From contig DASPNQ010000227.1 in assembly GCA_035626435.1 (NCBI GenBank), positions 64,915-128,914 on the forward strand: a stretch of 64,000 bases of DNA. The letters run 5' to 3'. A program made the position numbers and the translations under genes. Below, one piece after another: positions 1,279 through 61,945 of this stretch; position 1 is the stretch's first letter; each line of letters starts with the position of its first letter. The notes under the pieces were generated by a model. That model was not told the DNA's origin. It worked only from the letters and a program-made list of their open reading frames with translations, and ran no database searches. The DNA is from Vicinamibacterales bacterium. Lineage in GTDB: Bacteria > Acidobacteriota > Vicinamibacteria > Vicinamibacterales > UBA2999.

Positions 1279-1334
1279 CTGACAGGCCTGACAGGCCTGA
1301 CAGGCCTGACAGGCAGACAGGCAGACAGGCAGTC
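1279..1334. repeat. tandem repeat: CTGACAGGC x4, then AGACAGGC x2 (GACAGGC family)
   Basis: Read directly. Begins 4 nt after the HTH gene stop and ends 18 nt before the mini-ORF start. Confidence 0.95.
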
Positions 1335-1352
1335 AAGAGTTATGAGTTCTGA

Positions 1353-1547
1353 GTGGTGAATACAAACTCGAAAGAGCTGCTGCACAAGCTCAATAATCAA
1401 CTCGGCGTGATCCTCGCGCACGCCGAGTTGCTTGAGACGAAGGCGCAAGACGCGTCGCAAAAGGCGCGCGCGTCGCAGGTCGTCAATGCCGCGCTGCAGG
1501 CGATGGCGGTGTCGCGGGAGCTGCGACAGACAGTCGGCGAAAAGTAG
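1353..1547 (+). CDS. 64-aa stand-alone DHp/HisKA-like helical hairpin protein (hypothetical)
   Basis: Third codon positions are mostly G/C, consistent with coding. LLHKLNNQLGVILAHAELLE resembles the histidine-kinase H-box (H-[DE]-[FL]-N-N-x-L-x-x-I-x-G-x-x-E-L). No ATPase domain follows. GTG start, weak RBS. Confidence 0.5.
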   Translation: MVNTNSKELLHKLNNQLGVILAHAELLETKAQDASQKARASQVVNAALQAMAVSRELRQTVGEK

Positions 1548-1639
1548 CCGCCTCCTCCGCCCGCGCCGCACCTCATCCGCTTTTCGGTTTTTCCGCTCAC
1601 TTACCCATCCGTAATCGCACTTACGAAATAAAAACCGCA

Positions 1640-1685
1640 GTCAAATTGTTGACGTAGCAGTCATTATTAACGTCAATCGTTTGAC
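1640..1685. promoter_or_regulatory. two further GTCAA-N4-TTGAC palindromes 32 nt apart, nested in a larger palindrome TTGACGT-N14-ACGTCAA
   Basis: gtcaaattgttgac (1640-1653) and gtcaatcgtttgac (1672-1685), in the unusually AT-rich region upstream of the sigma factor gene. Confidence 0.4.
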
Positions 1686-5066: not shown

Positions 5067-6293
5067 ATGAAGATTTTCGGCCGCCAGGATCTGCTGCTGC
5101 TGGCTGCGTTGACGACGGCACTGATCATCGTGTTTTCATCAACGATTTCGCGGCTGCTCGATTACGTGCGCGAGATCGAGCGTCAAAGCGGCCTGACGTT
5201 GATGCCGGCGCTGGTCGTGCTCACGGGCGCGTTTCTCTTCCACCTCTACCGCCGCAATCATCAGCAACAAGCGAAGGCTCACGCCGCCGAGCTGGCGAGC
5301 AAAAACGCGCAGCATCGAGCCGAAGAACTGGAGCGCTTGGTCGCCTTCGGCCAGGCGCTTGGCCGTTCACTGGAGTTCGACAGTATTCGCGTGGCGGCGA
5401 CACAGCACCTGCCCGCGCTGGCGGGCACGGACTCGGTCTGGGTGCTCGTGCAGCACGGTTCGGAGTGGCAGGCGCTGGCGGGCGACACGCGTGGGGCCGA
5501 GGACGTACTGCAGTGGGGCGACCTCGCGCAGCAGCTGCTGGCGAGCGGCCCCGACAAGACGCCGAACGCGCTCACCGAACCGCGCACGCTTGGATTTCCG
5601 TTGATCGTCGGCGGGCAGGCGATGGGCGTGCTCGGCGTCCGCAGCGTCGGCGCGCTGCCTCCTGATCGCCGCAGCATCATCGAGGCGGCGGCCGCGTTGC
5701 TCGCCGTCTCGATCAAGAACGCGCAGTTGTTCAAGGAGGTGAAGGACAACAGCGTCAAGGACGCGTTGACCGGTTGCTTCACCCGTGCACACGCCCTGGA
5801 CGTGGTCGATGCGGAGCTGCGTCGCGCACGGCGCAGCCAGTCGCCGGTCTCGCTGATCATGTTCGACCTCGATCATTTCAAGGACGTCAACGATCGCTAT
5901 GGGCACTTGTGCGGCGACGCGGTGTTGAGCGCAATCGGCAAGCGCATGAAGGAAGTGTTGCGCGGATCCGACTTGAAGTGCCGTTATGGCGGCGAGGAAT
6001 TTATGGTACTGCTGCCGGAAACGCCGTTGCACGGCGCGCGCCGCGTGGCCGAGACGCTACGCCGCGAGATTGCGGAACGGCCGGTACCGTGGGCCGGCGA
6101 GGCGCTGACCGTCACGGCCAGCTTCGGGCTGGCGCAGACCATGCCCGGCGAGGTCAATGTCCAGGCAGTGATTGCGCGCGCCGATCAGGCGTTGTATCGC
6201 GCGAAGGGTGACGGGCGTAACTGCGTTCGCATCGCTGCGGAAAACCCGACGCTCATCACCGACGAGACGGCGCGACAGAATAGAATCTCGTGA
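5067..6293 (+). CDS. membrane-anchored GAF-like sensor diguanylate cyclase (GGDEF)
   Basis: N-terminal TM helices and a GAF-like middle region. The GGDEF domain has active site RYGGEEF and an RxxD I-site (RGSD) five residues upstream. Confidence 0.9.
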   Translation: MKIFGRQDLLLLAALTTALIIVFSSTISRLLDYVREIERQSGLTLMPALVVLTGAFLFHLYRRNHQQQAKAHAAELASKNAQHRAEELERLVAFGQALGRSLEFDSIRVAATQHLPALAGTDSVWVLVQHGSEWQALAGDTRGAEDVLQWGDLAQQLLASGPDKTPNALTEPRTLGFPLIVGGQAMGVLGVRSVGALPPDRRSIIEAAAALLAVSIKNAQLFKEVKDNSVKDALTGCFTRAHALDVVDAELRRARRSQSPVSLIMFDLDHFKDVNDRYGHLCGDAVLSAIGKRMKEVLRGSDLKCRYGGEEFMVLLPETPLHGARRVAETLRREIAERPVPWAGEALTVTASFGLAQTMPGEVNVQAVIARADQALYRAKGDGRNCVRIAAENPTLITDETARQNRIS

Positions 6294-6345
6294 TCTTGTG
6301 ATCTCGTGATCTTGCGATCTCAGATCTGGTCAACGGATCTCGAGG
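6285..6345. repeat. tandem repeat of GTGATCT-type units (GATC-rich family), 6 GATC sites
   Basis: atctcgtgatcttgtgatctcgtgatcttgcgatctcagatctgg...ggatctcg. Starts in the last codons of the diguanylate cyclase gene and fills the convergent gap. Confidence 0.95.
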
Positions 6346-7838: not shown

Positions 7839-9056
7839 ATGAGGTTTTGGAGGGAGGCTTCCGCCGAGGCGCGCAAGGCGCTGCTGGCCGGGTCACTGGG
7901 GTGGATGCTCGACGCCTTCGACGTGATGCTGTATGCCTTGGTGCTCACGGCGGTCGTCGAGGACCTGGGGCTGACGCGCGGGCAAGGCGGCTTGATGGCC
8001 TCTCTGACGTTGGCGGCATCGGCGGCCGGGGGGCTGATGTTCGGCGTGATCGCCGACAAGTTCGGCCGCACGCGAGCGCTGTCGTGGAGCATCCTCCTGT
8101 ACTCCGTCTTCACCTTCGCCTGCGGCTTCGCGCAGACGGTTACGCAGTTTGCGATCTTCCGCGTGATGCTGGGCCTCGGCATGGGCGGCGAGTGGGCCAG
8201 CGGCGCGGCGCTGGTCAGCGAGACGTGGCCCGAGAAGCACCGGGGCAAGGCGCTCGGCATCATGCAGAGCTGTTGGGCGATCGGCTACGCCCTCGCCGCG
8301 GTTGTGGTGGCAGTGGTACTGCCGCGATACGGCTGGCGAGCCGTGTTCTTTGTCGGAATTGCGCCCGCCCTGTTCACGTTGTGGATTCGCCGCAACGTGA
8401 AAGAACCGGCGATGTGGACAGGCCGGGCAGGCGGGGCAGGCGGGACAGGCGGGACAGGCATCGCCAAAGAAAAGTTTCCGCTCCGCATCGCGCTGTTTCT
8501 CACCGCGATGAATGCGGCGACGATGTTCGCGTGGTGGGGGTTGAATTTATGGGTGCCATCCTATCTGTCGCTGCCGACGACGCAAGGCGGCATTGGCCTC
8601 TCCACGGAAACGATGGCGATGTTCGTCGTCGCGATGCAGATTGGCATGTGGCTGGGTTACGTGTCGTTCGGCTTCATCGCCGATGCGTTCGGACGCCGGC
8701 CGACCTACATTTCGTATCTGCTGATCGCCGCGCTGCTCGTCTGGTACTACGGCTTCACGCGCGAGCCGTGGGTGCTGCTGCTGCTCGGGCCATTGGTGGC
8801 GTTTTTCGGCACCGGCTATTTCAGCGGCTTCGGTGCGGTGGCATCGGAGCTGTTTCCAACGTCGATCCGCGCGACCGCGTTGGGCGTGACCTATAACAGC
8901 GGCCGTCTCCTCAGCGCGATCGCGCCGTACATGGTCGGCACCATGGCCCAGAACCGGGGCTTCGGCGCGGCATTTACCCTGACCACGTTTGCGTTCATGG
9001 CGGCGGCGTTACTGTGGATTGGGATTCCGGAGACCAAGGGGCGAAAGATGATCTAG
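7839..9056 (+). CDS. MFS transporter
   Basis: 405 aa with a 12-helix hydrophobic pattern and the loop 2-3 motif GVIADKFGRTR. Confidence 0.8.
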   Translation: MRFWREASAEARKALLAGSLGWMLDAFDVMLYALVLTAVVEDLGLTRGQGGLMASLTLAASAAGGLMFGVIADKFGRTRALSWSILLYSVFTFACGFAQTVTQFAIFRVMLGLGMGGEWASGAALVSETWPEKHRGKALGIMQSCWAIGYALAAVVVAVVLPRYGWRAVFFVGIAPALFTLWIRRNVKEPAMWTGRAGGAGGTGGTGIAKEKFPLRIALFLTAMNAATMFAWWGLNLWVPSYLSLPTTQGGIGLSTETMAMFVVAMQIGMWLGYVSFGFIADAFGRRPTYISYLLIAALLVWYYGFTREPWVLLLLGPLVAFFGTGYFSGFGAVASELFPTSIRATALGVTYNSGRLLSAIAPYMVGTMAQNRGFGAAFTLTTFAFMAAALLWIGIPETKGRKMI

Positions 9057-9123
9057 CGATCTCGTGAGCTTGTGATCTGGAGATCTGATCTGGAGATCTG
9101 ATCTGGAGATCTATCTGGAGGTC
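9049..9123. repeat. tandem repeat: 13-nt unit TGATCTGGAGATC x3-4 plus degenerate GATCT units (GATC-rich family), 8 GATC sites
   Basis: Read directly. Spans the whole convergent gap, and both flanking stop codons (9054-9056, 9122-9124) lie inside it. Confidence 0.95.
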
Positions 9124-10598: not shown

Positions 10599-10645
10599 CC
10601 GGGAGCCGGGAGCCGGGAGCGCAGCGCCGAATCCGGGAGCCGGGA
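10599..10645. repeat. tandem repeat CCGGGAG x3 + x2 (GGGAGC family)
   Basis: ccgggagccgggagccgggagc...ccgggagccgggaa, in the divergent fabZ / S9 peptidase spacer. Confidence 0.95.
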
Positions 10646-12797: not shown

Positions 12798-12864
12798 GGG
12801 ACTAGGGAGCCAGGGAGCTAGGGAGCCAGGGAGCTAGGGAGCTAGGAGCTAGGGAGCCCGGGGC
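12798..12864. repeat. tandem repeat AGGGAGC(C/T) x8 (GGGAGC family)
   Basis: gggactagggagccagggagctagggagccagggagctagggagctaggagctagggagcccgggg, directly after the S9 peptidase stop. Confidence 0.95.
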
Positions 12865-15910: not shown

Positions 15911-16192
15911 GGCTTGCTCCTTTGCGGTCCGGCGAAGCCGGACGCTGACGATCGGTCACGACCCTCACAGCGATCCAATAAACGCCGCGGTCGGATCGTG
16001 AACGTGCGGCCGAAGAGCGGCGATGCCAGCGCCTGCCTGATAGTTCGCCCTTCGGTGATCCGCCGCGGCTGCGACACAGAACTCCAAGGTCCGTGCCAGA
16101 GCCGCGGCGCCGCCTAAGCCGTAGAAACGGCAGGAAAACGGGCCTTTGCCACGTCAGGCACCAGGGCCGTGTCACTTGCCGCGGACGGTGCG

Positions 16193-17568: not shown

Positions 17569-17603
17569 GCTAGCAGCAGCTACCAGCTAGTAGCTAGTCG
17601 TCG
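17569..17603. repeat. short AGCTA/GCTAG-type repeat
   Basis: gctagcagcagctaccagctagtagctagtcgtcgtc. Covers the 26-nt spacer between the kinase stop and the glnA start, plus the last kinase codons. Confidence 0.7.
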
Positions 17604-21913: not shown

Positions 21914-21962
21914 GCAAGACAGTATCTAGTATCTATCTGCGCGTAGCAAGACAGTATCTAGT
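21914..21962. repeat. 17-nt direct repeat GCAAGACAGTATCTAGT x2, 15 nt apart
   Basis: Copies at 21914-21930 and 21946-21962, immediately upstream of the start codon at 21912 (- strand gene). Confidence 0.9.
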
Positions 21963-21986
21963 GGTGGCAGCTGATCATTAAGCGAT

Positions 21987-22052
21987 CGGGACGAGGGACG
22001 AGGAAGCAGGGATTAGAAATTAGGAACGAGGAATTAGGAAGCGGAGTTGCGA
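21987..22052. repeat. purine-rich degenerate repeat (GGGACGA, AGGAA, ATTAGGAA units)
   Basis: gggacgagggacgaggaagcagggattagaaattaggaacgaggaattaggaagcggag is about 80 percent purine on the + strand. Confidence 0.85.
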
Positions 22053-22813: not shown

Positions 22814-22878
22814 CAGGCAGTCAGGCGGTCAGGCAGACAGGCCGACAGGCAGACAGGCGGACAGGCCGACAGGCCGCC
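22814..22878. repeat. tandem octamer repeat NGWCAGGC x8 (GACAGGC family)
   Basis: caggcagtcaggcggtcaggcagacaggccgacaggcagacaggcggacaggccgacaggcc, between the ccdA start and the nuoG-like stop. Confidence 0.95.
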
Positions 22879-27600: not shown

Positions 27601-27801
27601 TCAGTCAGGCAGACAGGCAGACAGGCCGACAGGCAGTCAGGCAGTCAGGCCGACAGGCCGACAGGCAGGCAGTCAGGCCGACAGGCCGACAGGCAGTCAG
27701 GCAGCACGTGGTCATCATCAAAGACTCCTTTGACCCCTGTCGGTCTGCCGTCCGCCTGTCTGCCTGTCCGCCTGTCTGCCTGTCTGCCTGTCTGCCTGCC
27801 T
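27601..27801. repeat. fold-back array: ~12 NGWCAGGC octamers (27601-27703), 33-nt loop, then the complementary GCCTGTC array (27737-27801)
   Basis: Read directly. Starts at the base after the M1 peptidase start codon. Both arms are periodic and mutually complementary. Confidence 0.95.
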
Positions 27802-27830
27802 GGTATTAGACCCCGGTGGGACGAAAAGTT

Positions 27831-34477: not shown

Positions 34478-34540
34478 CTGCAGATCTTAGCCGCGATCAC
34501 CCACGCAATGCGTGGCGCGATGCGTGGTTCCGCTCCCCCC

Positions 34541-34848
34541 GGTTGTTAGGTGCCAGGTACACTCCACCCACACGGGGTTGCTAGGTGCCAGGTACAGTCC
34601 AACCACTGGCGGTTGGCCGGTGCCAGGTACATCTAGGCCGGATTGGTGTTGATCGCTGGGCTTGCCTGCTGCAATTGGGCCGAAAATCGCCGCGCTGAAC
34701 GACTCATCGGCGCCGGTTGAACTGTACCTGGCGCCTTCCGACCAGTTGGGCAGTCCATGCAACTGCACGTGGCCCCGGCGTGCCGGCGGTTGAACTGTAC
34801 CTGGCCCTTAAGAACCGGGGGTGAGGTGTACCTGGCCCTTAACAACCA
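34541..34848. repeat. composite inverted repeat: three ~35-nt units with core GGTGCCAGGTAC facing three (plus one degenerate) inverted units with core GTACCTGGC(G/C)C
   Basis: Forward cores at 34549, 34584 and 34619. Inverted cores at 34724, 34797 and 34828, with a degenerate copy at 34765. Outer, middle and inner units pair with each other (for example GGTTGTTAGGTGCCAGGTACAC versus the complement of GTGTACCTGGCCCTTAACAACC). Confidence 0.9.
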
Positions 34849-35014
34849 GCGGGTGGGGTAAAGGGCAGGCGCGACGGCGAATTGCATCACCCGTCATGTA
34901 ATAGCTACACGCTTACACGTCCATACGGCCGATGCTGCACCTCGACTGTGTGGACTAAACAACTGAAAACACATGGGTTATTCGATTGGCAAGAAACTTG
35001 GTTATGTCGGGGGC

Positions 35015-35957: not shown

Positions 35958-36003
35958 TCGATCGGGTGATCGGTTTGGTGATCTCGTGATTTGGTGATGG
36001 TGA
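35958..36003. repeat. tandem repeat of GGTGAT(C/T) units (GATC-rich family)
   Basis: tcgatcgggtgatcggtttggtgatctcgtgatttggtgatggtga, between the VWA stop and the OmpA-family RBS. Confidence 0.9.
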
Positions 36004-36693: not shown

Positions 36694-36830
36694 AGGCCAA
36701 TGGGCCAATGGGCCAATGGGCCAAGGGGCTGATGGGCCAATGGGCCAATGGGTTGATGGGCCAAGGGGCCAAGGGGCCAAGAGGCCAAGGGCCGAAAGTC
36801 AATAGGCGCCAACAAGCCAACAGCCCAGCA
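36694..36830. repeat. tandem nonamer GGGCCAATG/GGGCCAAGG x~11, decaying into CCAAC/AGCAA repeats
   Basis: ggccaatgggccaatgggccaatgggccaaggggctgatgggccaatgggccaatgggttgatgggccaaggggccaaggggccaagaggccaaggg. Lies between the OmpA-family stop and its terminator. Confidence 0.95.
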
Positions 36831-36834
36831 AGCA

Positions 36835-39093: not shown

Positions 39094-39275
39094 CAGTCTG
39101 CAGTCGACAGTCGGCAGTTCAGAGTCAAGTTGGGCAGTCGACAGTCGGCAGTTAACGGTCGTAGGGCCATCGACAGTCGGCAGTGAAGAGTCAAGTTGGG
39201 TAGTGGACAGTCGGCAGTTGACGGTCGAGTTGGTCAGTCAACAGTCAGAGATCGGCGGCAGTTGGCAGTCGACGA
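39094..39275. repeat. periodic repeat: core GACAGTCGGCAGT x4 at 32-34-nt spacing, with alternating related inter-core segments (CAGTC family)
   Basis: Cores at 39106, 39140, 39172 and 39206. Units 1/3 and 2/4 resemble each other. A tail of CAGTC/GGCAGT words runs to 39275. Confidence 0.9.
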
Positions 39276-41159: not shown

Positions 41160-41201
41160 GAAGTTAGAAGTTAAAAGTTAAAAGTTAAAAGTTAGAGTTA
41201 A
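41160..41201. repeat. AT-rich tandem heptamer AAGTTA(A/G)
   Basis: aagttagaagttaaaagttaaaagttaaaagttagagttaag. Overlaps the stop and last codons of the MetF-like gene and abuts the aminotransferase start codon. Confidence 0.95.
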
Positions 41202-42048: not shown

Positions 42049-42108
42049 TCTGGTGATCTGGTGAGCTGGTGATCTGATCTCGTGATCTGTTGATCTGTTG
42101 ATCTGCCG
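42049..42108. repeat. tandem repeat of (G/T)TGATCTG units (GATC-rich family), 6 GATC sites
   Basis: atctggtgatctggtgagctggtgatctgatctcgtgatctgttgatctgttgatctgcc, between the DUF4412-like stop and the MetF-like start. Confidence 0.95.
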
Positions 42109-51189: not shown

Positions 51190-51198
51190 GCCCCGATT

Positions 51199-52110: not shown

Positions 52111-52112
52111 CG

Positions 52113-52220
52113 TCAGTCAGCAGTCAACAATCGGCAGTTCACAGTTGCAGTCTTGCCGTCGACAGTCCCAGTCGGCCAGTCGGCCAGTCGTTCAGTCGAG
52201 TCAGAGAGTCTTTCAGTCAC
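52113..52220. repeat. degenerate CAGTC-word repeat (CAGTC family, related to 39094-39275)
   Basis: cagtcagcagtcaacaatcggcagttcacagttgcagtc...gacagtcccagtcggccagtcggccagtcgttcagtcgagtcagagagtctttcagtcac, in the divergent LysR / purE spacer. Confidence 0.9.
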
Positions 52221-52246
52221 GGAGTGTATACTTTGCATTTCTAGAC

Positions 52247-52735
52247 GTGACTGAAAATCCGCTTGTCGCCGTGATCATGGGGTCGACATCTGACTGGGAC
52301 ACGATGTCTCATGCCGCGGACGTGCTCGAACGGTTCGGCGTGCCATTCGAGAAAGACGTCGTCTCGGCGCATCGCACGCCGGTGTGGATGGCGGAATTCG
52401 CGCAAGGCGCGGAAGCGCGGGGCATCCAGGTGATCATCGCCGGCGCCGGCGGCGCCGCGCATCTGCCTGGGATGGTCGCCTCGCACACGATCCTGCCGGT
52501 GCTCGGCGTGCCGGTGCAGAGCGCGTCGCTGCAAGGGCTCGACTCGCTGTTGTCGATCGTGCAGATGCCGCGCGGTGTGCCGGTCGGCACGCTTGCGATC
52601 GGCAAGACCGGAGCCGGCAACGCCGGCCTGCTCGCCGTCAGCATCCTCGCCACGACACGGCCGGAGTTGCGCGAGCGGCTGCGGCAATTCCGCGCCGAAC
52701 AGACGGCCAAGGTGCGCCAGGACACACTCCCGTGA
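52247..52735 (+). CDS. purE: N5-carboxyaminoimidazole ribonucleotide mutase
   Basis: [11 protein letters not shown]...SAHRTP...[14 protein letters not shown]...LGVPV. GTG 52247 chosen. The track start 52145 lies inside the repeat array. Confidence 0.9.
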
Positions 52736-53865
52736 ACCGTATCGTGTTGCCCGGCGCCACCATCGGCGTGCTGGGCAGCGGACAGCTCGGGCGGATGCTC
52801 GCGCTCGAGGCGCGGCGCATGGGGTATCGGGTCCACACCTTGTCGCCCGGCGTCGATACGCCGACCGGCCAGGTGGCGGATCTCGAGGTGAGTGCCGAGT
52901 ACGACGACATCGAAGCGATCCGCGCGTTCGCCCGCGGCGTCGACGTGGTGACGTTCGAATTCGAGAACGTCTCGACCAACGCGGCTGACGCCGCGGCCGA
53001 GCTCGTGCCGGTGCGGCCGAGCGGCGCGGCGCTGCATATCACGCAGCAACGCGCGCGCGAGAAGGCATTTCTTGCGGATCGCGGCTATCCGGTCACGCCG
53101 TTCGCCAAAGCGCAATCGCTCGACGAGCTCGCGGTCGGCCTGGGCGCGATTGGGCTGCCGGCGATCGTCAAGACCGCCGCGTTCGGCTACGACGGCAAAG
53201 GCCAGCACCGCATCGATCGCATCGAGGACGGCGAGCGGGTGTGGGGATTAATCGGTCACCAGGAGGCAATCATCGAGCGGCTCGTCAAGTTCACCCACGA
53301 GATCTCGGTGATCGCCGTGCGCGGCCTCGATGGCGAGTTCGCGCATTACGGCGCGGTCGAGAACCTGCATCGCAATCACATTCTGGATCTGTCGGTGGCA
53401 CCCGCGCGTGTCGACGCCGGCGTCGCTTCTGAGGCGGTGCACCTGGCGCATCGCGTGCTGGACGACCTGGGTTACGTCGGCGTGTTGTGCGTTGAGTTTT
53501 TTGTGACGGCGGATGGCCGCGTGCTGGTCAACGAAATCGCGCCACGGCCGCACAACTCAGGCCATTTCACCATCGATGCGTGCGTGACCTCGCAGTTCGA
53601 GCAGCAGGTGCGAGCGGTGTGTGGCTTGTCGCTCGGCGATCCCACGCAGATCAAGCCGGCCGCGATGGTCAATCTGCTTGGCGACTTGTGGATCGACGGC
53701 GAGCCGGACTGGGCCGCCGCGCTGGCCCTTGCCGATGTGAAACTGCATTTGTACGGAAAGGGCGCCGCGCGTGTCGGCCGGAAGATGGGGCACATCACCG
53801 CACTGGGCGACACCGTCGACGAAGCGGTGGCCAAAGCACTGGCGGCGAGGGAGGTGCTCTGCTGA
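52732..53865 (+). CDS. purK: N5-carboxyaminoimidazole ribonucleotide synthase
   Basis: The GTG overlaps the purE stop (GTGA). [15 protein letters not shown]-grasp N-terminus and [12 protein letters not shown]. Confidence 0.9.
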
Positions 53866-53866
53866 C

Positions 53867-53930
53867 GATCGTTCTACGGGCGTTCTACGGGGGTTCTACG
53901 ATCGTTCTACGATCGTTCTACGGGCGTTCC
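53867..53930. repeat. tandem repeat of GTTCTACG units x6 (spacers GG(G) or AT)
   Basis: cgatcgttctacgggcgttctacgggggttctacgatcgttctacgatcgttctacgggcgttcc. Fills the convergent purK / acylase gap, and the acylase stop (53918-53920) lies inside it. Confidence 0.95.
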
Positions 53931-56374
53931 ATGGCGGGAACCAGTGTGAGCGTCGACACCGTGGCGCCGGGCATGAAGGGGGTCGGGTCGCCGTTGAGCC
54001 AGGCGCGGTATTGGTCGCCGTAATGTGGCGACAACGGGTGGCCGCTCTGGCCGGTCGGGATGTGCAGGATGCCCTCATGTTCGCGGCCGGGTGAGACGAC
54101 CATTCGTTGCGACGGACCGGTTCGCGGCGTGCTGGCGCGTGGGGTATAGACATCGCCCGGCAGCGGCGCGCCGGGCATGTTGAGATAGTTCCCGAAGATT
54201 GGGATGGCGGATGCAAGCGGATGACGGATCTCCGCGGTGTTCGCTTCACCCCAGGTGCGCTCCGCCAGCGTCTTGCTCCGTTCGATCAATTGCTCGATCG
54301 TGATGTCGACCGCCGCAAGGACCGCCTGGTCCCACGACTGGTATTTCGGATCGAGCAAATGCGCGGGCCGCTCGGTGAGAATCTGCCAGACAGGCCCTTC
54401 ACCCCGCAGCAGTCGCGTGTAATCGAAATCAGGATCGACTGCCGCCGCCGCCGCCGTCAGTGACGTCATCACCGCGCGCACGAACGTCGTGCGGAATTCC
54501 TTGACCAAACGGTAGCCCACTGAGTCCGTTGACGCCCTGCCAGTCCAGCTCGATGCCACGAGCCGCCTGAACTCGTCGCGTCGCGCCGCGCCCGGCGACG
54601 CAGATTGGGACCCAGGCGCGGGGATGGTATTGAGCAGCAACGCGCGCCACCGCTCGAGAAACAACGCGCGATCGTCGAGCTGGATGTCAAGCATGTCCCG
54701 CGGCGTCGCTTTGTCGATTCGCAACAATCGATCGCGAATCAGCCGCGCGCGGATGGCATCGGCGTAGCCACCCTCTCCAATCCTGGCCAGCATCCGGCCG
54801 TCGACGACGGGCGCATTTGCGGACCAGAGACGGCCGTCCGCTGGATCGATGATGCGCGGGAATTCAGCCGCATCGAGATAACCATCCCATCGATGTGATC
54901 CGTTCACCCATGATTCCGGGGTGAAGCCGTTGTGTCCGACGCGCCGCGGGATCACGCCGCCAATCGTCCAGCCGATGCGGCCAGTCCGATCGACCATCGC
55001 CACGTTTTGATTCGGCATCCCGAGGCCAGCGACGGCAGTCATCAGCTCCTCGACCGTTCGCGCGCGCTCCGGCCTGGTGACATCCGAAGCGAGGACGCGC
55101 GGATCGTGCGCGACCCACCGTTGCGCATATTCGCGGCCGCGCCGGTCCTTCCAGATGACGGGTCCCCAGATTGTCCACTCGACGCGCGCGGTCCTTTCAG
55201 CGGCGCCCTTGACGACGATTGTCTCGTTGAAGATTTGGAACGACGCGGCGCCGTTGGGCGTGAGGTATTTCGACGCGTCTCTGGGATCCCGCTCGATGCG
55301 AACCAGGTCACTCCAGTCGCCGCCCGTGTTCGTAAACCCCCAGGCGACGTGGCCATTGCTCCCGACGACCAGCCCGGGGATGCCGGGCAGTGTGACGCCG
55401 GCCAGTAGTTGCTTGGCGGTTAGCTGAGCGGCATCGGGAAAAATCATCGACGCGCGATACCAGATGATCGGCACCCCGATTGACAAGTGCATGTCGTTGG
55501 CCACCATCGCCGCACCGGACGCAGAGCGCTCGGCGTCGACCGCCCAGTTATTCGAGCCAAGGCTGGCTGTCAGCACGGCTTCGTCATCGACGTGCGCGCG
55601 GACGCTGGCAGCCTGATGACGACTGAGGCGTTTGGACGCCGTTGGCGCGACGCGACGGACATCGAACACATCGGGGCCGGGTATGGGCGGACGCTCAATC
55701 GCGGTGCCGATGACCGGCGTGTCCCACTCGGATCCAACGGTCGACAGGAAGCGAAACATCGGTTCCGGCAACGAGTCGCGAAGCGCGCCGTGCGAGCGCT
55801 CGAACAATGCCTGGCGCCCCTGCAATGTGTTGAACATCGCGAGCACCGTCAATATCGAATCCTCGGGCAGCCAGCGCTCGGGCTCGGCGCGCAGAATCAG
55901 GTACTCGAACGGCGGCGCGTCAAGCGCGTCGAGGCCGGCATTGACCCCGTCCGAGTAGGCTTCGAGTACGCGGCGATAGGACGGTTCCGACAATTCGACC
56001 GCGCGGCGCGCGACGTCTCGGAAGCGATGCACCCGGATCTCTTCGTCGACGGCAATCGCGCGTGGACCGACCAGTGCGGCCAGCTCGCCGGCCGGCTGCC
56101 GTCGCTGCAGGTCCATCTGAAAGAAGCGATCCTGCGCGTGAAGAAAGCCGAGCGCGCGCGCCACATCCTCGCGGGAAGCGCCGGTGATCGTCGGGATACC
56201 AAGAGCATCGCGCTCGATGGTGGCGTTCGCCCGCAGCCCGCTGATCGCGACCGTGCCGTCGAGGCGCGGCAGGCTCGCACGCATTCGCGAACGGGCGTAG
56301 ACGGCGCCGCCGACGATCACGACGGCGAGACCGATGAGCAGGAGGAGCAGACCGCGGACCATCCACCCGAACAT
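53918..56374 (-). CDS. penicillin/AHL-acylase-family Ntn hydrolase
   Basis: ATG 56374 gives a TM/signal anchor MFGWMVRGLLLLLIGLAVVIV. Autoproteolytic nucleophile context LGSNNWAV. Total length about 818 aa. Confidence 0.8.
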   Translation of the reverse strand: MFGWMVRGLLLLLIGLAVVIVGGAVYARSRMRASLPRLDGTVAISGLRANATIERDALGIPTITGASREDVARALGFLHAQDRFFQMDLQRRQPAGELAALVGPRAIAVDEEIRVHRFRDVARRAVELSEPSYRRVLEAYSDGVNAGLDALDAPPFEYLILRAEPERWLPEDSILTVLAMFNTLQGRQALFERSHGALRDSLPEPMFRFLSTVGSEWDTPVIGTAIERPPIPGPDVFDVRRVAPTASKRLSRHQAASVRAHVDDEAVLTASLGSNNWAVDAERSASGAAMVANDMHLSIGVPIIWYRASMIFPDAAQLTAKQLLAGVTLPGIPGLVVGSNGHVAWGFTNTGGDWSDLVRIERDPRDASKYLTPNGAASFQIFNETIVVKGAAERTARVEWTIWGPVIWKDRRGREYAQRWVAHDPRVLASDVTRPERARTVEELMTAVAGLGMPNQNVAMVDRTGRIGWTIGGVIPRRVGHNGFTPESWVNGSHRWDGYLDAAEFPRIIDPADGRLWSANAPVVDGRMLARIGEGGYADAIRARLIRDRLLRIDKATPRDMLDIQLDDRALFLERWRALLLNTIPAPGSQSASPGAARRDEFRRLVASSWTGRASTDSVGYRLVKEFRTTFVRAVMTSLTAAAAAVDPDFDYTRLLRGEGPVWQILTERPAHLLDPKYQSWDQAVLAAVDITIEQLIERSKTLAERTWGEANTAEIRHPLASAIPIFGNYLNMPGAPLPGDVYTPRASTPRTGPSQRMVVSPGREHEGILHIPTGQSGHPLSPHYGDQYRAWLNGDPTPFMPGATVSTLTLVPAMERP

Positions 56375-56479
56375 GACCAGGATTGTATCGAGACGCACGG
56401 TGCGCCTGAAGGCCGACCAGGCACTGCAATCGCAACCCGCGGATCGTGGACCGCGGCACCAGTGGCGTATCGTGCGGTC

Positions 56480-57559
56480 ATGGTGCACGATCAAGCGATT
56501 GCAATGACAGGACTGGACATGCGCTGGCGCGCGCTAGCGGAGCGGGATGCCGCCGCAGACGGCACGTTTGTTTACGGCGTGACGTCGACGCGGATTTATT
56601 GCCGGCCGAGTTGTCCAAGCCGCCGGCCGCGGGCCGATCGCGTCAAGTTTTTCGATACTACCGCGGAAGCGCGGCACGCCGGGTTTCGCGCCTGCAAGCG
56701 CTGTCAGCCCGACATCGTCGGCCTGGCGCAGCCCGGAGTGGAAGCGGTGCGTCGCGCCTCGGCGTACCTCGCATCGCATGCCGATCAAGCGGTGACCCTG
56801 GCGCAACTCGCGCGCGTCGCGGCGATGAGCGCGCATCATCTGCAGCGGCGCTTCAAGGCGATCGTCGGTCTGTCTCCGCGTGAGTTTCAATCGGCGGTGC
56901 GGGCCGGCAAGCTGCGCACCAGCCTGCGCGACGGGCGCGACATCACGACGGCGATCTACGAGGCCGGGTACGGATCGCCAAGTCGCGTGTACGAAGCCGC
57001 TCCCACCGGCAAGGGGATGTCCCTGTCGGCATACCGGCGGGGCGGCGCCGGCATGCGCATCGGTTACTCGACGATCGCGAGCACGATCGGCCGGGTACTG
57101 ATCGCCGCGACCGATCAGGGTGTGTGCGCGGTGAAGATCGGCGAGAACGATCGCGCGCTGGTCAGCGAGTTGCGGAGGGAATACCCCGCCGCGGTCGTGA
57201 CGGCGACCTCCAAACCCCGTCGCGAGTGGATCACCGCCGTCGCCGAACATTTGCGTGGTGCTTCCACGTCGCTCGATCTGCCCATCGATGTGCAGGCGAC
57301 AGCCTTTCAGTGGAAGGTGTGGCGGGCGCTGCAGCGGATTCCATACGGGGAGACGCGACGGTATGGCGACGTTGCGACGAGCATCGGCCGGCCGAAAGCC
57401 GTGCGCGCGGTTGCACGCGCGTGCGCGACCAATCCGGTCGCCCTGGTCGTGCCATGCCACCGGGTGGTCCCCGCAGCTGGCGGGGTCGGCGGCTACCGAT
57501 GGGGCAGAAAGACGAAGGACAAGTTGCTGGCGGCAGAAGCTCGAGCCAAAAGCCTATAG
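56480..57559 (+). CDS. ada: bifunctional Ada-type regulator / methylated-DNA-protein-cysteine methyltransferase
   Basis: Ada zinc-finger region (YCRPSCPSR...FRACKRCQP), an AraC-type HTH and a C-terminal MGMT active site VPCHRVV. Start uncertain (56480, 56504 or 56519). The track start 55487 is antisense to the acylase gene. Confidence 0.8.
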   Translation: MVHDQAIAMTGLDMRWRALAERDAAADGTFVYGVTSTRIYCRPSCPSRRPRADRVKFFDTTAEARHAGFRACKRCQPDIVGLAQPGVEAVRRASAYLASHADQAVTLAQLARVAAMSAHHLQRRFKAIVGLSPREFQSAVRAGKLRTSLRDGRDITTAIYEAGYGSPSRVYEAAPTGKGMSLSAYRRGGAGMRIGYSTIASTIGRVLIAATDQGVCAVKIGENDRALVSELRREYPAAVVTATSKPRREWITAVAEHLRGASTSLDLPIDVQATAFQWKVWRALQRIPYGETRRYGDVATSIGRPKAVRAVARACATNPVALVVPCHRVVPAAGGVGGYRWGRKTKDKLLAAEARAKSL

Positions 57560-57568
57560 AATTCCCTC

Positions 57569-58795
57569 GTGCCATCGACCCGATACGGCATTTCCCCCTG
57601 GCTGGACGCCGTACCTGTCAAAAAACGGCCTGAATTTCCGGCTTTTCGCGGCGTCATCGAGCATCCCGTGGTCGTGGTGGGCGGCGGTATGGCCGGTGCG
57701 ATGTCGGCGTATGCCTGCGCCGCCGCGGGTTTCAAGGTCATTTTGTTGGAGGCCGAACGCATCGGCGCCGGCGGCAGCGGCCGTGCGACCGGCCTGATGT
57801 CCGGCGAAACCGGCGACGCGTATCGCGACGTCGAATCGAGGCACGGCAAGCGGCTGGCCCGATCGGTCTTCGAGGCGATGGAATCGGCGCCGCGCGAGTT
57901 GGCCGCGACTGCCAAACGTCTGGGCATCAGGGCGGATGTCGCTGTCACCAACCAGCTGCGTATTCTCGGCGCCGGGCAGCCGGACAAGCTGCTGCGACGC
58001 GAATCCGCCGCGCGCGAAGGAACCAAACTCGACGCCGCGTGGCTGGCGCCCGGTGCGGTAGCGCGCCTCACCGCGCTGGAGACGGCCGGCGCGATGCGCC
58101 TGCCGGACGGCGGTTTTGCCGATCCGTTCAAGCTGACGCTGGGATTTCTGAATGCGGCGGTCAAGAAGGGCGTGAAGGTCTACGAGCGATCGCGGGTCAA
58201 AAAGATCACGTTCACGCGCAAGACCGCGACCGCGTTTCTCGACGGCGGCGCCATCACGACGACCCATCTCGCGATTTGCACGGGCGAGCCGACCTCGTTA
58301 TTCAAGCCACTCAAGCGGCACCTTCGCCACGAAGATCGTTACGCCGTCCTGACGGAGCCGCTGCCGGCGCCGGTTCGCGCCGAGCTCGGCCAGCGCACCG
58401 CGATCCTCTCCGATACGGAGACACCGCCGCATCATTTGTATTTCACGCACGACCACCGCGCGTTGTTTGCAGGCGCCGATCAGAAACGGCCGGCGGATCG
58501 GCTGCGCGACAAGACGCTGATTCAGCGCACCGGGCAATTGATGTACGAATTGTCGCGGCTCTATCCGGCGATCTCAGGTGCACGTCCGGAATACGGATGG
58601 GACGTACCATTGGCGCATTCGGTGGATGGCGTGCCGTACGCCGGTTCGCATCGCAACTTTCCGTTCCATCACTTTGCGTTCGGCACGTTGCACGATCCGG
58701 CGCGCGCGTTCCTGGCCAGCCGGATCATCCTGCGAAGCATTCAAGGGACGACAACCAAAGACGACGAGTATTTTTCATTCGCGCGCAACCTGTAA
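57569..58795 (+). CDS. FAD-dependent oxidoreductase (DAO family)
   Basis: Dinucleotide-binding VVVVGGGMAGAMSAYACAAAG...GGSGRATG. Confidence 0.75.
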   Translation: MPSTRYGISPWLDAVPVKKRPEFPAFRGVIEHPVVVVGGGMAGAMSAYACAAAGFKVILLEAERIGAGGSGRATGLMSGETGDAYRDVESRHGKRLARSVFEAMESAPRELAATAKRLGIRADVAVTNQLRILGAGQPDKLLRRESAAREGTKLDAAWLAPGAVARLTALETAGAMRLPDGGFADPFKLTLGFLNAAVKKGVKVYERSRVKKITFTRKTATAFLDGGAITTTHLAICTGEPTSLFKPLKRHLRHEDRYAVLTEPLPAPVRAELGQRTAILSDTETPPHHLYFTHDHRALFAGADQKRPADRLRDKTLIQRTGQLMYELSRLYPAISGARPEYGWDVPLAHSVDGVPYAGSHRNFPFHHFAFGTLHDPARAFLASRIILRSIQGTTTKDDEYFSFARNL

Positions 58796-59049
58796 CGGCG
58801 TGTTGCTGGCCGCGTTGTCCGATACGAGGGAAACCCCGCGGCCGAGTCAGGCATCTTTCCATTACCCCGAAGCTCGCGGCGTGCCGGAAGGTATGGCAGC
58901 ACCGACGCGCAAAACGGCTGGCAGCACGAGTTGGGGTGGTGTTGCGACGGCGGCGAGGGAACGGCTCGGCGCCCAACGGCGTAAACGACGTTAGGTTCTA
59001 TACTGATCTCTTGAAACAGGTTCATCCCACAACGGAAGGCAAAGTCTCC

Positions 59050-61917
59050 ATGCTCCGCATTCTCACGGCGTTCATTTTCAGCGTGGCTTTCGGCACTGCG
59101 GCGTTTGCGCAGTCGACGGCCATCAACGGGACCATTGAAGGCACGGTCAAGGACGAGCAAGGCGCGTTGTTGCCCGGCGTCACCGTGACCGTGACCAACC
59201 TCGACACGGGCGATCAACGGGTCGTCGTGACCAACGAGAGCGGCCTGTATCGCGCGCCGCTGTTATCGCTGGGCACCTATCGGGTCGCGGCTGAACTGCA
59301 GGGATTCAAAAAGTTCGAGCAGACCGGCGTGTCGCTGCGCGCCGGCCAGACGGCGGTGATCGACGTATCGTTGAGCGTCGGCGCGCTGGCCGAAACCATT
59401 ACCGTGACCGCCGACGCCCCGGTCGTCGACCTTGCCAAGATCGAGCAGGGCCGCACGCTGAGCGAGGCGGAGATCAAAACGCTGCCGCTGACGTCCCGCA
59501 ACCCCTACAACTTCGCGCTGCTGCAGCCCGGGGTGGTCGGCTTCGAGACCAACGAGTTTGGCGTGCCGCGCATCACCGCCAACGGCGCGCTGCTTCGCGT
59601 CAATTACCAGGTCGACGGCAGCAACAACACGCAGAAGGATCGCGCGGGACTTCGCCAGATGCCGATGTCGGAAGTGATGATCCGCGAAGTGAAGGTCGTC
59701 ACCAGCGGCTACGCTCCCGAGTTCGGGCAGACGATGGGGATGGTCTACAACGCGATCACGCCGTCGGGCACCAACACCCTGAAGGGTCAGGCGAGCTACC
59801 GGCTGCAGCGGCAGTCGATGGTGGCGATGCCGTTCTTCACAGCCGCCGGGGCGGCGAAGCCGCCGACGGACGTCAACGTCTACACCTTCGACCTCGGCGG
59901 CCCGATCGTCAAGGACAGGACGCACTTCTTCGGCGGTTATGAGCACACCGAGCGCGACTTGTCCGGTTTGAGCGTGATTACGATCTCGCCGGCGAACCAG
60001 GCGGCGCTCGGACTCAGCGAACCTGCCTACCAGCCGCGCGGTCTCAACACCGAATTCGCGATCGGCAAGGTCGATCACCAGATCAGCTCCGGCAATCGCC
60101 TGTCGGTCCGTTACATGTTTTTCGACAATTTCATCACCGCCAACGTCGGCGGCGGTCTGCTCTCGGTGCAGCGCGCCAACGACTTCGCGGATCGCCAGCA
60201 CTCGACCGGCGCGCAGTTGATTTCAACGATTGGTGGCGGCATGCTCAACGAGCTGCGGCTGCAGTACGCGACGCGCGCCCAGAGCCGCGTGCCGAATGCG
60301 CAGTCAGGGACCGGCCCCGCGATCAACGTCACCGGCGTCGCGCAATTCGGCGGTCCGATCGCCGCCGTGTCGGATGCGGGCTTCGGCTTCACGCAAAACG
60401 TGTTTCAGGTCAACAACAACTTCACCGTGCTGAAAGGCAACCACGCGATGAAGGCGGGTGTGGACCTGCAGTGGGTCGCCGACACGCGCGTAGCGCCACA
60501 GGCGCAGCTTTACACCTTCCCGACGCTGCAGGCGTATCTCGACGCGCGCAATGGCGTCAATCGTTTCAGCTATACGACCTTCACCCAGTACTTCGGTCTG
60601 CCAAATCTCGAGTACAACACTGCGCAGTACGGCGTGTTCGTCCAGGACGACTGGCGAGTCACGACGGACCTCAAGGTGCTGTATGGTCTCCGTTACGACC
60701 TGTATACTCCGCCCGATTCGAACCCAAGCGCGCCGGTCGCGTCGTCACGCAGCTTCCCGGTTTCGAAGAACAATTTTGCGCCTCGTCTCGGCGCGGTGTG
60801 GACGCTCGGCGAAAGCAAGCGCGCCGTGATTCGCGCGAACACCGGCCTGATGTACGACCAGACGTTGAACGCGATTTACGAGCAGGCGCTGCAGAACGAC
60901 GGGACCAACGCGCGAGCCTCGGCGACGTTCACCCCGACGCAGGCGGGCGCGCCGGCGTTTCCGGCGGTGCTGAGCGCGGGCACCGGCGCGACGCCGAACC
61001 TGGCGTGGACGGTCGACCCGGAATTCAAGATCGCGCGGTCGTGGCAGAACAACGTGCAGTTCGAACGTGCCATCGGCGACCACTACTCCGTTGCTATCGG
61101 GACGTCCTTCGTGAAGGGTTACAACCTGCCCGTCGTCACGAACATCAACCCGATCAATCCGATTGGCACGCTCGCTGACGGCCGGCCGATTTTCAGCACC
61201 GCGGTCAATGCGTCGACGCGGCTCGACCCCCGTTACAACGTGATCAACAGCGTCCAGTCGCCGGGCGAGTCGACGTATCGAAACATGACGCTGCAACTGA
61301 CCCGCCGACAGTACCGCGGCATCGGCTTCGACTTTGCCTACACCCTGGGCAAGGCCGAGGATAATGCGCCAATTACCGGCACGTTGTCGGTGCAGGGCGA
61401 TGCCGGCCGGTCGGACATGACGAACCTCGAGTTCGATCGCGGCCCCAACATCCTCGACCAGCGGCACACCTTCGTTGGCAGCATCGTCGCGACGCCGCAG
61501 TTCGAGCGCGGCGGCGCCGCCGGCGCGGTTCTGAACAACAACGTCTTTGGTCTGGCCATTCAGCTCGCCAGCGGCATCCCGGTCAACCTGCGCAGCAACC
61601 TCGAGCTGAACAACGACGGCACGGCCAGCGATCGTCCGGTCGGCGTCGCGCGCAACTCGCTCAACCTGCCCTCGCGAAAGAACCTCGACTTCCGGTATTC
61701 GCGCCGGTTCGGCTTCGCCAACGACTTGGCGGCGGAACTGATTGCGGAGGTGAAGAACATCTTCAACACCGAACAGGTGTCGTCGGTGAATGCGACGGTC
61801 CCGACCAACGCTCAGGGCGTGCCGACCGGAACCCTGCCGACGTCGGGAAGCCAATTGACGCCGACCGGCGGGTACGAGCAGCGGCAATTCCAGTTGGGAT
61901 TCAAGTTCACGTTCTAG
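59050..61917 (+). CDS. TonB-dependent outer-membrane receptor with N-terminal CarboxypepD_reg domain
   Basis: ATG 59050 gives signal peptide MLRILTAFIFSVAFGTAAFAQ. INGTIEGTVKDEQGALLPGVTVTVTNLDTGDQRVVVTNESGLYR follows. The barrel ends in the terminal LGFKFTF. The track start 58039 is an extension across the previous gene. Confidence 0.85.
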   Translation: MLRILTAFIFSVAFGTAAFAQSTAINGTIEGTVKDEQGALLPGVTVTVTNLDTGDQRVVVTNESGLYRAPLLSLGTYRVAAELQGFKKFEQTGVSLRAGQTAVIDVSLSVGALAETITVTADAPVVDLAKIEQGRTLSEAEIKTLPLTSRNPYNFALLQPGVVGFETNEFGVPRITANGALLRVNYQVDGSNNTQKDRAGLRQMPMSEVMIREVKVVTSGYAPEFGQTMGMVYNAITPSGTNTLKGQASYRLQRQSMVAMPFFTAAGAAKPPTDVNVYTFDLGGPIVKDRTHFFGGYEHTERDLSGLSVITISPANQAALGLSEPAYQPRGLNTEFAIGKVDHQISSGNRLSVRYMFFDNFITANVGGGLLSVQRANDFADRQHSTGAQLISTIGGGMLNELRLQYATRAQSRVPNAQSGTGPAINVTGVAQFGGPIAAVSDAGFGFTQNVFQVNNNFTVLKGNHAMKAGVDLQWVADTRVAPQAQLYTFPTLQAYLDARNGVNRFSYTTFTQYFGLPNLEYNTAQYGVFVQDDWRVTTDLKVLYGLRYDLYTPPDSNPSAPVASSRSFPVSKNNFAPRLGAVWTLGESKRAVIRANTGLMYDQTLNAIYEQALQNDGTNARASATFTPTQAGAPAFPAVLSAGTGATPNLAWTVDPEFKIARSWQNNVQFERAIGDHYSVAIGTSFVKGYNLPVVTNINPINPIGTLADGRPIFSTAVNASTRLDPRYNVINSVQSPGESTYRNMTLQLTRRQYRGIGFDFAYTLGKAEDNAPITGTLSVQGDAGRSDMTNLEFDRGPNILDQRHTFVGSIVATPQFERGGAAGAVLNNNVFGLAIQLASGIPVNLRSNLELNNDGTASDRPVGVARNSLNLPSRKNLDFRYSRRFGFANDLAAELIAEVKNIFNTEQVSSVNATVPTNAQGVPTGTLPTSGSQLTPTGGYEQRQFQLGFKFTF

Positions 61918-61918
61918 T

Positions 61919-61945
61919 TACGAACGCCACGAACGACACGAAGCG
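61919..61945. repeat. tandem 9-mers ACGAACGCC / ACGAACGAC / ACGAAGCGC
   Basis: Read directly after the TonB-dependent receptor stop. Merges into the left arm of the hairpin at 61933-61989. Confidence 0.8.

Follow-up and report, generated by a model that had tools for sequence, protein, structure and literature searches.

The stretch of DNA analysed here, hereafter the window, comprises 64,000 nt of a Vicinamibacterales bacterium (GenBank assembly GCA_035626435.1, contig DASPNQ010000227.1, positions 64,915 to 128,914 of the forward strand), a soil or freshwater metagenome-assembled genome (MAG); the GC content of the window is 63%. Its genes, placed on a curated map by means of Pfam matches and the gene calls of contigs from the same species, are separated by spacers, many of which are filled with short units repeated head to tail. 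Of the 37 spacers on this map that measure 20 nt or more, 17 are occupied by such arrays, which take up over half the spacer in 14 of these and account for 28.6% of the intergenic DNA (1344 of 4693 bp). We report that these arrays are long-unit (5–11 nt, mostly heptameric) intergenic simple sequence repeats (SSRs), a described class and not a new class of element, that they appear to be a trait of the order Vicinamibacterales as a whole, and that they probably arise by slippage in unconstrained DNA next to stop codons.

Arrays were detected with Tandem Repeats Finder (TRF) and by direct reading of the sequence. By a single TRF criterion the window has 14 arrays, with periods of 7–13 nt (mostly 8) and 3.8–13.4 copies. 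The strong arrays among the sites described earlier, with TRF scores of 45–127 and 4–13 copies, span 1279–1330, 6285–6321, 9073–9120, 10599–10645, 12798–12862, 22814–22874, 27602–27704, 27743–27802, 36695–36793, 39092–39273, 41161–41201, 42048–42105, 52168–52218 and 53870–53929. The window arrays are imperfect, with 63–97% matched positions. A preliminary description, made from the sequence alone, had reported arrays at these sites and many spacers filled by them; TRF finds arrays at nearly all of the sites, four of which (17569–17603, 21921–22040, 35958–36003 and 61919–61945) are weak or degenerate, and the observation is thereby confirmed. The features are as follows, with the basis of each in parentheses.

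1279..1334, + strand: CAGGC-family array, (CTGACAGGC)x4 plus (AGACAGGC)x2 (TRF score 76, 6 copies), between the stop of an HTH gene (1275) and a 64-aa open reading frame (ORF) (1353).
6285..6345, + strand: GATCT-family array, GATCT-N-G-N, period 8 (TRF, sequence), in the convergent GGDEF / EamA spacer, beginning 9 nt ahead of the GGDEF stop.
8416..8459, + strand: CAGGC-family array of period 9, in frame within an MFS transporter gene (TRF score 67, MFS_1 match), encoding Gly-rich TGRAGGAGGTGGTG (frame derived by hand from the sequence).
9049..9123, + strand: GATCT-family array with the 13-nt higher-order unit TGATCTGGAGATC (TRF, sequence), forming the entire convergent spacer between the MFS gene and an HD-domain gene; the first unit includes the MFS TGA stop.
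10599..10645, + strand: CCGGGAG heptamer array (TRF score 45) between the divergent FabA-like and S9 peptidase genes; the S9 peptidase start lies past the array in the gene calls of same-species contigs.
12798..12864, + strand: GGGAGCYA octamer array x7.8 (TRF score 92–102), 2 nt past the S9 peptidase stop, with G3 runs spaced 8 nt.
17569..17603, no strand assigned: irregular, weak AGCTA-rich stretch (TRF score only 31, 1.9 copies) covering a histidine kinase stop and the spacer ahead of glnA.
21921..22040, no strand assigned: three mini-arrays of AGTATCT, GGGACGA and AGGAATT heptamers (TRF scores 30–38) in the DsbD / GAF spacer; the orthologous spacer of relatives holds AGTAGCC/CTGGATA hairpins or (TTAGAGG)13.
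22814..22878, + strand: CAGGC-N-G-N octamer array x7.6 (TRF, sequence), filling the 74-nt spacer from the NuoG-like stop to the DsbD start, 2 nt from the ATG.
27601..27704, + strand: CAGGC-N-G-N octamer array x13.4 (TRF, folding), forming the left arm of an inverted pair that can fold into a hairpin and lying 1 nt from the start codon of the M1 peptidase.
27743..27802, − strand: inverted arm made of GTCTGCCT x7.6, to which the CAGGC array is the reverse complement (TRF); the arms of the pair 27602–27802 are 53 nt long and 87% complementary, with a minimum free energy (MFE) of about −135 kcal/mol.
35958..36003, + strand: degenerate GTGATNNN array x5 between the VWA and OmpA genes (by eye; sub-threshold in TRF).
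36694..36830, + strand: GGCCAAKG octamer array x12.5 past the OmpA stop (TRF), followed by a canonical terminator hairpin at 36834–36862.
39094..39275, + strand: GACAGTC/GGCAGTY heptamers that are themselves part of higher-order repeats of 34 and 66 nt (TRF, sequence), starting on the TGA stop of an SDR gene.
41160..41201, + strand: AAGTTAA heptamer array x4.9, 2 nt from an aminotransferase start codon (TRF); the unit is also present in the relatives L003 and L055.
42049..42108, + strand: GATCT-family octamer array x7.6, adjoining the stop of a DUF4412 gene (TRF).
52113..52220, + strand: CAGTC-family array, periods 7–8, in the divergent LysR / purE spacer (TRF).
53867..53930, + strand: array of GTTCTACG + NNN, period 11, x5.5 (TRF), filling the convergent spacer purK / penicillin amidase with a 12-nt overlap at the amidase 3′ end.
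61919..61945, + strand: weak ACGAACGNC x2.6 (TRF score 39), overlapping the left arm of a terminator-like hairpin at 61933–61989.
34540..34860, no strand assigned: a longer-unit analogue, three direct 35-nt units followed by three inverted copies of about 31 nt, each with GCCAGGTACA.

Most units are octamers in which a constant core is joined to a short linker that varies: CAGGC-N-G-N at 1279, 22814, 27601 and in the inverted arm at 27743, GATCT-N-G-N at 6285, 9049, 35958 and 42049, GGGAGC-YA at 12798 and GGCCAA-KG at 36694. The heptamers are CCGGGAG at 10599, GACAGTC-like units at 39094 and 52113, and AAGTTAA at 41160. The claim that arrays never run deep into coding sequence stands in that they are almost entirely non-coding, but the one clear coding array of the window (8416–8459), absent from the preliminary description, lies in frame within the MFS gene, and other arrays overrun gene ends by up to 9–17 nt. 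The core of the coding array is identical to that of the intergenic CAGGC octamers, but its period of 9 keeps the reading frame. A search of the whole window against Rfam at gathering thresholds gave no match. Autocorrelation of the non-array spacer DNA, applied to detect decayed arrays, shows a weak excess at periods 7, 8 and 14, which is contaminated by the 3-nt signal of missed coding sequences.

A chance origin of the arrays is excluded. The criterion that retrieves 14 arrays in the window retrieves a mean of 0.27 in 30 dinucleotide-preserving shuffles, none in 50 kb of E. coli and one in 50 kb of S. meliloti pSymB (63% GC). The recurrence of unit families at separate sites (CAGGC and GATCT at four loci each, CAGTC and GGGAG at two each) is likewise far above chance: 25 CAGGC cores spaced 8 nt are observed in the window versus 0.3 expected, and 10 GATCT cores at the same spacing versus 0.1. 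The impression that arrays of the same family are often neighbours lacks statistical significance (adjacent pairs: 3 observed versus 1.29 expected, P=0.12).

Contigs of the same species from other samples were found in ENA, JGI and Logan by means of three window proteins, one of them a response regulator of 123 aa; the M1 protein of the window itself matched no record. These assemblies are 99.0–100% identical over window positions 1–30639 and 49047–64000 and reproduce the arrays located there; the arrays are therefore real. The reading that they are artefacts of assembling a MAG might draw on the Logan contig L004 of a relative, which terminates inside arrays at both ends (1–30 and 15346–15373), suggesting that arrays sharing units across loci break short-read assemblies. 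However, the separate samples reproduce the window arrays with no indels except one clean unit loss, and the MAG contigs L036, L040 and L053 (up to 3–4.6 Mb; long-read assembly is suggested by their names only) are equally array-dense. An assembly artefact is effectively refuted by the independent assemblies, and we regard it as next to impossible.

The clean loss concerns exactly one 9-nt CTGACAGGC unit (1279–1287), in the perfect part of the array at 1279, in strain L218. It is the only array indel among the strain comparisons and the only indel of any kind in the 14.4-kb alignment with L218 (99.8% identical), and it provides direct, single-instance evidence of whole-unit slippage. The remaining arrays are unchanged in nearly all comparisons with strains 99–100% identical to the window. 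In strain L088 (about 99.4% identical), the spacer at 21921–22048 carries 8 substitutions and no indel, versus about 0.4% elsewhere, and the changes within its heptamers (21921–22040) look like swaps between unit variants. The hyp120 / glnA spacer of L088 (window 15985–16190) is about 91% identical, with numerous indels, and both of these spacers have diverged far more than the genes that surround them. No short-unit arrays were found in the 7.9 kb to the right (L215 14952–22868) and the 7.2 kb to the left (L218 14386–21590) of the window. These array-free flanks, about 15 kb of the same genome, nevertheless have several spacers of 50–420 nt, showing that array density is uneven along the chromosome.

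The M1 aminopeptidase (gene at window 24826–27600) finds its best named relatives in metagenome-assembled Vicinamibacterales (Acidobacteriota) genomes. Eighty loci from species-representative genomes were surveyed, with 46–76% identity in this aminopeptidase, together with the syntenic loci of relatives, 1.52 Mb in all and a single pipeline throughout. Across these roughly 80 species, array density is 1.78 per kb in intergenic DNA versus 0.071 per kb in coding DNA, so arrays are by no means equally frequent inside genes. This 25-fold enrichment is a lower bound, because genes of the related loci were called with our own codon-usage caller and some of the 98 'coding' arrays, notably the 42 with period 7, are probably mis-called spacers. 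Arrays make up 7.7% of the intergenic bp, and per species their share runs from zero to more than 20% of intergenic DNA; the intergenic periods are chiefly 7 (141 arrays), 8 (57) and 9 (28). Judged by these loci, the arrays are a trait of the whole order Vicinamibacterales, not a peculiarity of the window. A limited literature search (Vicinamibacter plus tandem repeats) returned no earlier description of such repeats in Acidobacteriota. Several contigs with a Vicinamibacterales-type M1 locus (L007, L008, L027, L028, L033, L055 and others) carry the titles Cyanobacteriota, Acidimicrobiia, 'uncultured Bifidobacteriaceae' or Solirubrobacteraceae in public MAG records, which are likely binning or naming errors.

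The arrays are not distributed evenly among spacers. In the survey, the share of spacers that contain arrays is 40% where the genes converge, 21% in tandem and 12% where they diverge, the difference between convergent and divergent spacers being significant (P=1e-7, Fisher). Within tandem spacers, 61 of 133 arrays begin at most 10 nt from the upstream stop, and only 29 end at most 10 nt from the next start. A stop triplet is present on the sense strand in 43% of stop-adjacent array units versus 25% of those of farther arrays (P=0.003), and in the spacer 3′ of M1 the TAG stop itself forms the first unit of GTAGCCN arrays. The presence of stop codons within first units indicates that arrays are seeded from local sequence, not by insertion of a foreign element. 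Relative to transcription, single arrays show no bias in sense-strand composition (44 G-rich versus 43 C-rich).

A subset of arrays is organised in inverted pairs. In 31 cases of the survey, an array is followed at most 120 nt downstream by a second one whose unit is its reverse complement; a single pair of this kind is present in the window (27602–27802). These 31 pairs have predicted folding MFEs of −25 to −165 kcal/mol and usually stretch from the stop codon to within 0–20 nt of the next start. U tracts were looked for 3′ of the hairpin pairs, and none was seen. G–U pairs are equally frequent in the sense and antisense folds (58 versus 56), with a mean MFE difference of −0.8 kcal/mol; this symmetry, together with the balanced composition of single arrays, means that no transcript-level signature is apparent.

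The spacer 3′ of M1 allows the same position to be followed among species. Arrays or hairpins occupy it in 32 of 73 species, versus 8 of 73 for the 5′ spacer and 21% for tandem spacers overall, and the units in the 3′ spacer vary widely (GTAGCCN, CAAGCCC, GCGGCTT, TAGGGCA, GGCACCC, GAACCTCCCC and others). Five species have one hairpin in common (GTAGCCN / CTGGCTA), and in one species, L003, a CG to AU change is found in all four units of both arms of this hairpin; the arms therefore evolve in concert. Such a concerted change fits either template switching between the arms or selection for pairing. In L007 (12839–13056), L016 (12821–12876) and L055 (12818–12919), the M1 3′ spacer is instead filled by palindromes (GGTCCGGCTAAAGCCGGACC, GGTCCGCCTTTAGGCGGACC) similar to repetitive extragenic palindromic (REP) sequences, standing where other species have tandem-repeat hairpins, and in L007 a 22-nt tandem repeat lies between them.

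We consider it probable, if by no means assured, that the arrays result from slippage-driven expansion in unconstrained stop-adjacent DNA, together with purging from coding sequence and inverted duplication with homogenisation of the arms, followed by decay. Replication slippage would duplicate short segments of unconstrained DNA in tandem, most often at or just past a stop codon, and the arrays would then grow or shrink by whole units, as shown once, or by multi-unit blocks. Arrays spreading into genes would shift the frame and be removed by selection, because 7 and 8 are not multiples of three, only 9-nt versions surviving in frame; this purge would leave the arrays packed between a stop codon and the promoter or start of the next gene. 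The hairpin-capable pairs would come from duplication of an array in inverted orientation, for which template switching within one molecule is a plausible route, and the same process would keep the arms matched. Finally, point substitutions would decay the arrays. Most arrays are probably without sequence-specific function, and the hairpin pairs may secondarily act as intercistronic or 3′ stem-loops.

However, several findings weigh against slippage as the sole source of the arrays. Slippage itself was observed only once, and the high occupancy of the M1 3′ spacer exceeds that of tandem spacers in general, which could reflect selection for structure there. Within one genome, a small number of unit families are found again in spacers that lie apart, as are CAGGC and GATCT in the window, and family recurrence is likewise seen within the loci of relatives. 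Variation within these units is limited to two linker positions, the 5-nt core and the middle G being fixed across loci, although anchoring the analysis on the core favours such an outcome. Each genome also has its own unit length, shared by units that are otherwise unrelated: 8 of 12 arrays here have period 8, most relatives have units of 7 nt, and six relatives (L017, L022, L024, L049, L058 and L071) have period 7 alone. In addition, arrays of the same family keep one chromosomal orientation whatever the direction of the adjacent genes, as the preliminary description had noted. Apart from the inverted arm at 27743–27802, every recurring family of the window is on the + strand; at other loci, unpaired arrays of the same family have the same orientation in 14 cases and the opposite one in 4 (P=0.03); and the order of the hairpin arms is identical at different loci in L040 and L053. 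Simple slippage fails to explain families, unit length and orientation, which points to a genome-specific property of replication or repair. It is quite unlikely, in our estimate, that a genome-specific trans-acting determinant sets all three of these features, the same process keeping hairpin arms matched. Such a determinant could be a peculiarity of replication or repair or a dedicated single-strand DNA enzyme. If it exists, Vicinamibacterales would maintain self-renewing intergenic hairpins and spacers at gene 3′ ends, similar to the system of REP and REP-associated tyrosine transposases (RAYTs) and built from tandem oligomers.

Three other explanations have to be weighed against slippage. 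The arrays might be functional cis-elements of the transcript, the inverted pairs serving as intercistronic or 3′-end stem-loops that stabilise or insulate the mRNA in the manner of REP sequences and the single arrays as platforms for an RNA-binding regulator close to start or stop codons. The stable folds of the 31 pairs, which typically span the whole gap from stop to start, the preference for the M1 3′ over the 5′ spacer and the pairing-preserving double change in L003 all speak for such a role. So do three window arrays that end 1–2 nt from start codons lacking a Shine–Dalgarno sequence, and translational regulation has been proposed for the TAACTGA repeats of Beggiatoaceae (PMC4679880). 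However, the arrays show no strand preference relative to transcription, and the CAGGC family, which is in the sense orientation at 1279, is antisense at 22814 and 27601. The hairpins fold equally well from either strand and are not followed by U tracts, the units at orthologous spacers are mostly unrelated, and Rfam holds no match to the window. A transcript function is thus unlikely on balance. The earlier suggestion of a determinant at the level of DNA rather than of the transcript is favoured instead, since orientation ignores gene direction and the sense strand has no G/C bias.

At the level of DNA, a dedicated machine might spread the arrays, be it REP/RAYT-like, a single-strand transposase of the IS200/IS605 type or another enzyme that copies or writes units. 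It would explain the genome-specific families with their recurrence far beyond chance, the invariant cores with varying linkers, the strand-consistent orientation and the constant order of the hairpin arms, and the REP-like palindromes of the M1 3′ spacer in three relatives would agree with it. Nevertheless, arrays of the same family have no common flanks, terminal inverted repeats or target duplications, and a Pfam scan of roughly 50 ORFs of the window, representing most of the gene map, matched no transposase or nuclease family. The stop codons built into first units indicate an origin in place, and 15 kb of flanking DNA is array-free. A metagenome scan for four CAGGC cores spaced 8 nt returned at least 119 stretches of 38–72% GC, and the matches listed include eukaryote-like contigs and contigs with telomere-like and microsatellite repeats; the CAGGC octamer pattern is therefore not lineage-specific. 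Spread by an enzyme is accordingly a decidedly improbable account. The chances are slimmer again for signals of DNA structure or chromosome organisation, either G-quadruplex repeats, as proposed for GGGAATC, or strand-polar octamers comparable to Chi or to FtsK-orienting polar sequences (KOPS). The GGGAGCYA array x7.8 and the GGG units of relatives (AGGGATC, CGGGATT) match the G3-N-G3 pattern of PMC4692102, orientation is consistent on one strand, and most window arrays have G >= C on the + strand, whose cumulative GC skew is positive. Yet the CAGGC, GATCT, CAGTC, GGCCAA and AAGTTAA families lack G3 runs, the GC skew of arrays is unrelated to that of their locus (Spearman 0.05, P=0.56; concordance 70 of 123, P=0.15), and tandem clustering in a few spacers is unlike the distribution of known polar motifs. 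Slippage near stop codons thus remains the reading that we prefer.

Some further observations concern the same neighbourhood. The longer-unit analogue at 34540–34860 lies in the 495-nt divergent spacer aminotransferase / VWA, which contains all six exact copies of GCCAGGTACA (three on the + strand, then three on the − strand); with at most one mismatch the window has 9 matches versus 1.6 expected, and no exact copies occur outside 34540–34860. This arrangement could serve to bind a regulator, or it could be the inverted-array architecture in a version with long units. Ahead of the NuoG-like gene (window 24764–24825, and orthologous spacers in L001–L055), a conserved motif, GATAGAAT, GATATCAT or AGTACAAT, ends 9–12 nt before the ATG and looks like the −10 box of a leaderless or very short-leader mRNA. 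No Shine–Dalgarno sequence is visible at the NuoG-like, DsbD, M1 and aminotransferase starts. A sigma-70-family gene (+ strand, ends 2970) and a hybrid histidine kinase gene (− strand, ends 2796) converge with a 175-nt overlap (2796–2970), which is also present in same-species gene calls (L218 11416–11590).

The arrays mark a whole order of abundant, mostly uncultured soil Acidobacteria with dense heptamer-type repeats, which make up as much as about 29% of intergenic DNA. The roughly 80 species with syntenic spacers form a comparative set in which position persists while units turn over, hairpin arms change in concert and unit length is genome-specific, so that ideas of a polymerase footprint and of template switching become testable. 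On the practical side, the arrays break short-read assemblies, can confuse the calling of gene starts and could serve as strain markers. Their value lies mainly in providing a large comparative system for the old question of the origin and function of heptamer repeats.

Heptamer-type intergenic repeats are on record from Xanthomonas, cyanobacteria, Beggiatoaceae and some Bacteroidetes. The window arrays share the features of this class, namely head-to-tail iteration of a 5–11-nt unit in at least about 3 copies (14 arrays), over-representation in non-coding DNA, occurrence of a unit family at multiple separate loci, and a whole-unit length change between strains. The view that they belong to no described class of element does not hold, as they match the long-unit intergenic SSRs of PMC4692102 and PMC4679880. 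The exclusion of CRISPR, of MITEs (miniature inverted-repeat transposable elements) and of REP sequences with their bacterial interspersed mosaic elements (BIMEs) is upheld. The units are contiguous and of 7–9 nt, and no cas domains were found in Pfam scans of the window ORFs, in disagreement with CRISPR, whose repeats of 24–48 nt alternate with unique spacers of similar length; arrays of the same family share nothing beyond the repeat units and have unrelated flanks, in disagreement with MITEs, whose copies have terminal inverted repeats, a target-site duplication and a conserved body in common. SSRs of the phase-variation (contingency) type are rejected as well, the arrays being imperfect, mostly 3′ of genes and identical in nearly all comparisons of close strains. 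So is the G-quadruplex GGGNATC class, which calls for four or more G3 tracts with short loops between them, regular G3 runs being found only at 12798–12864 and partly at 10599–10645 and 8416–8459, with none in the CAGGC, GATCT, CAGTC, GGCCAA and AAGTTAA arrays.

REP/BIME elements resemble the arrays in being extragenic, concentrated 3′ of genes and where neighbouring genes are co-directional or convergent, and in forming inverted, stem-loop-capable arrangements in the same kind of spacer; three relatives even have true REP-like palindromes instead of arrays in the spacer 3′ of M1. However, the direct repeats of 7–9 nt found here are not self-complementary and contain no conserved element of 20–40 nt, and hairpins arise only from two opposed arrays, for which reasons this assignment is rejected. 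No RAYT (Y1 transposase) gene was found among the roughly 50 window ORFs scanned.

Mrazek, Guo and Shah (PNAS, 2007) are said to have found long SSRs with units of 5–11 nt, LSSR(5-11), enriched in large high-GC genomes of non-pathogens and to have read them as a general tendency of SSRs to expand. The present arrays are likewise long-unit SSRs with heptamers over-represented. To our knowledge, that survey did not report order-wide persistence at an orthologous spacer, arm-matched hairpins or a genome-specific period. As relayed by PMC4692102, the 2007 survey observed heptamers to be over-represented among long SSRs in large high-GC genomes and suggested that the length of the unit mirrors the stretch of DNA within the polymerase.

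The short tandemly repeated repetitive (STRR) sequences are heptanucleotides of heterocystous cyanobacteria (Calothrix/Anabaena). A few heptamer families per genome are each present in tandem arrays at many intergenic loci, as here, whereas the phylum and the units are different and octamers and nonamers are common in the present case. Three heptanucleotide repeat families of Calothrix are cited in PMC4692102. The TAACTGA arrays of Beggiatoaceae adjoin start codons (MacGregor 2015, PMC4679880). They are comparable as intergenic heptamer arrays, since some of the present arrays also lie a few nt from starts without a canonical ribosome-binding site (DsbD, M1, aminotransferase). However, TAACTGA is one unit, located mostly just upstream of starts and almost never inverted, whereas the arrays described here mostly adjoin stop codons, have many families and are often inverted.

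The closest likeness is to the GGGAATC / GGGGAYT heptamer arrays of Xanthomonas and Nostoc (Rehm et al. 2015, PMC4692102), which are biased to non-coding DNA and lie near ORF ends. In Xanthomonas, such arrays are under-represented between divergent genes, form 70–75 inverted pairs per genome and keep their position between species while length and sequence vary; a function was not found (PMC4692102). In both cases, tandem units of the 7-nt class, in 2 to about 26 copies, occupy many loci with a non-coding bias, few of them between divergent genes. Both sets of arrays lie near ORF ends, include inverted pairs capable of forming stem-loops, keep position while length and sequence vary, and show no connection with the function of genes; units of the GGGATC and GGGATT types are present in Vicinamibacterales loci as well. 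We note the following differences: several unrelated families are present per genome here, whereas one G-rich unit dominates there, and in the window, which belongs to the phylum Acidobacteriota, most units are without G-quadruplex capacity, there is no preference for four copies, and period 8 is dominant.

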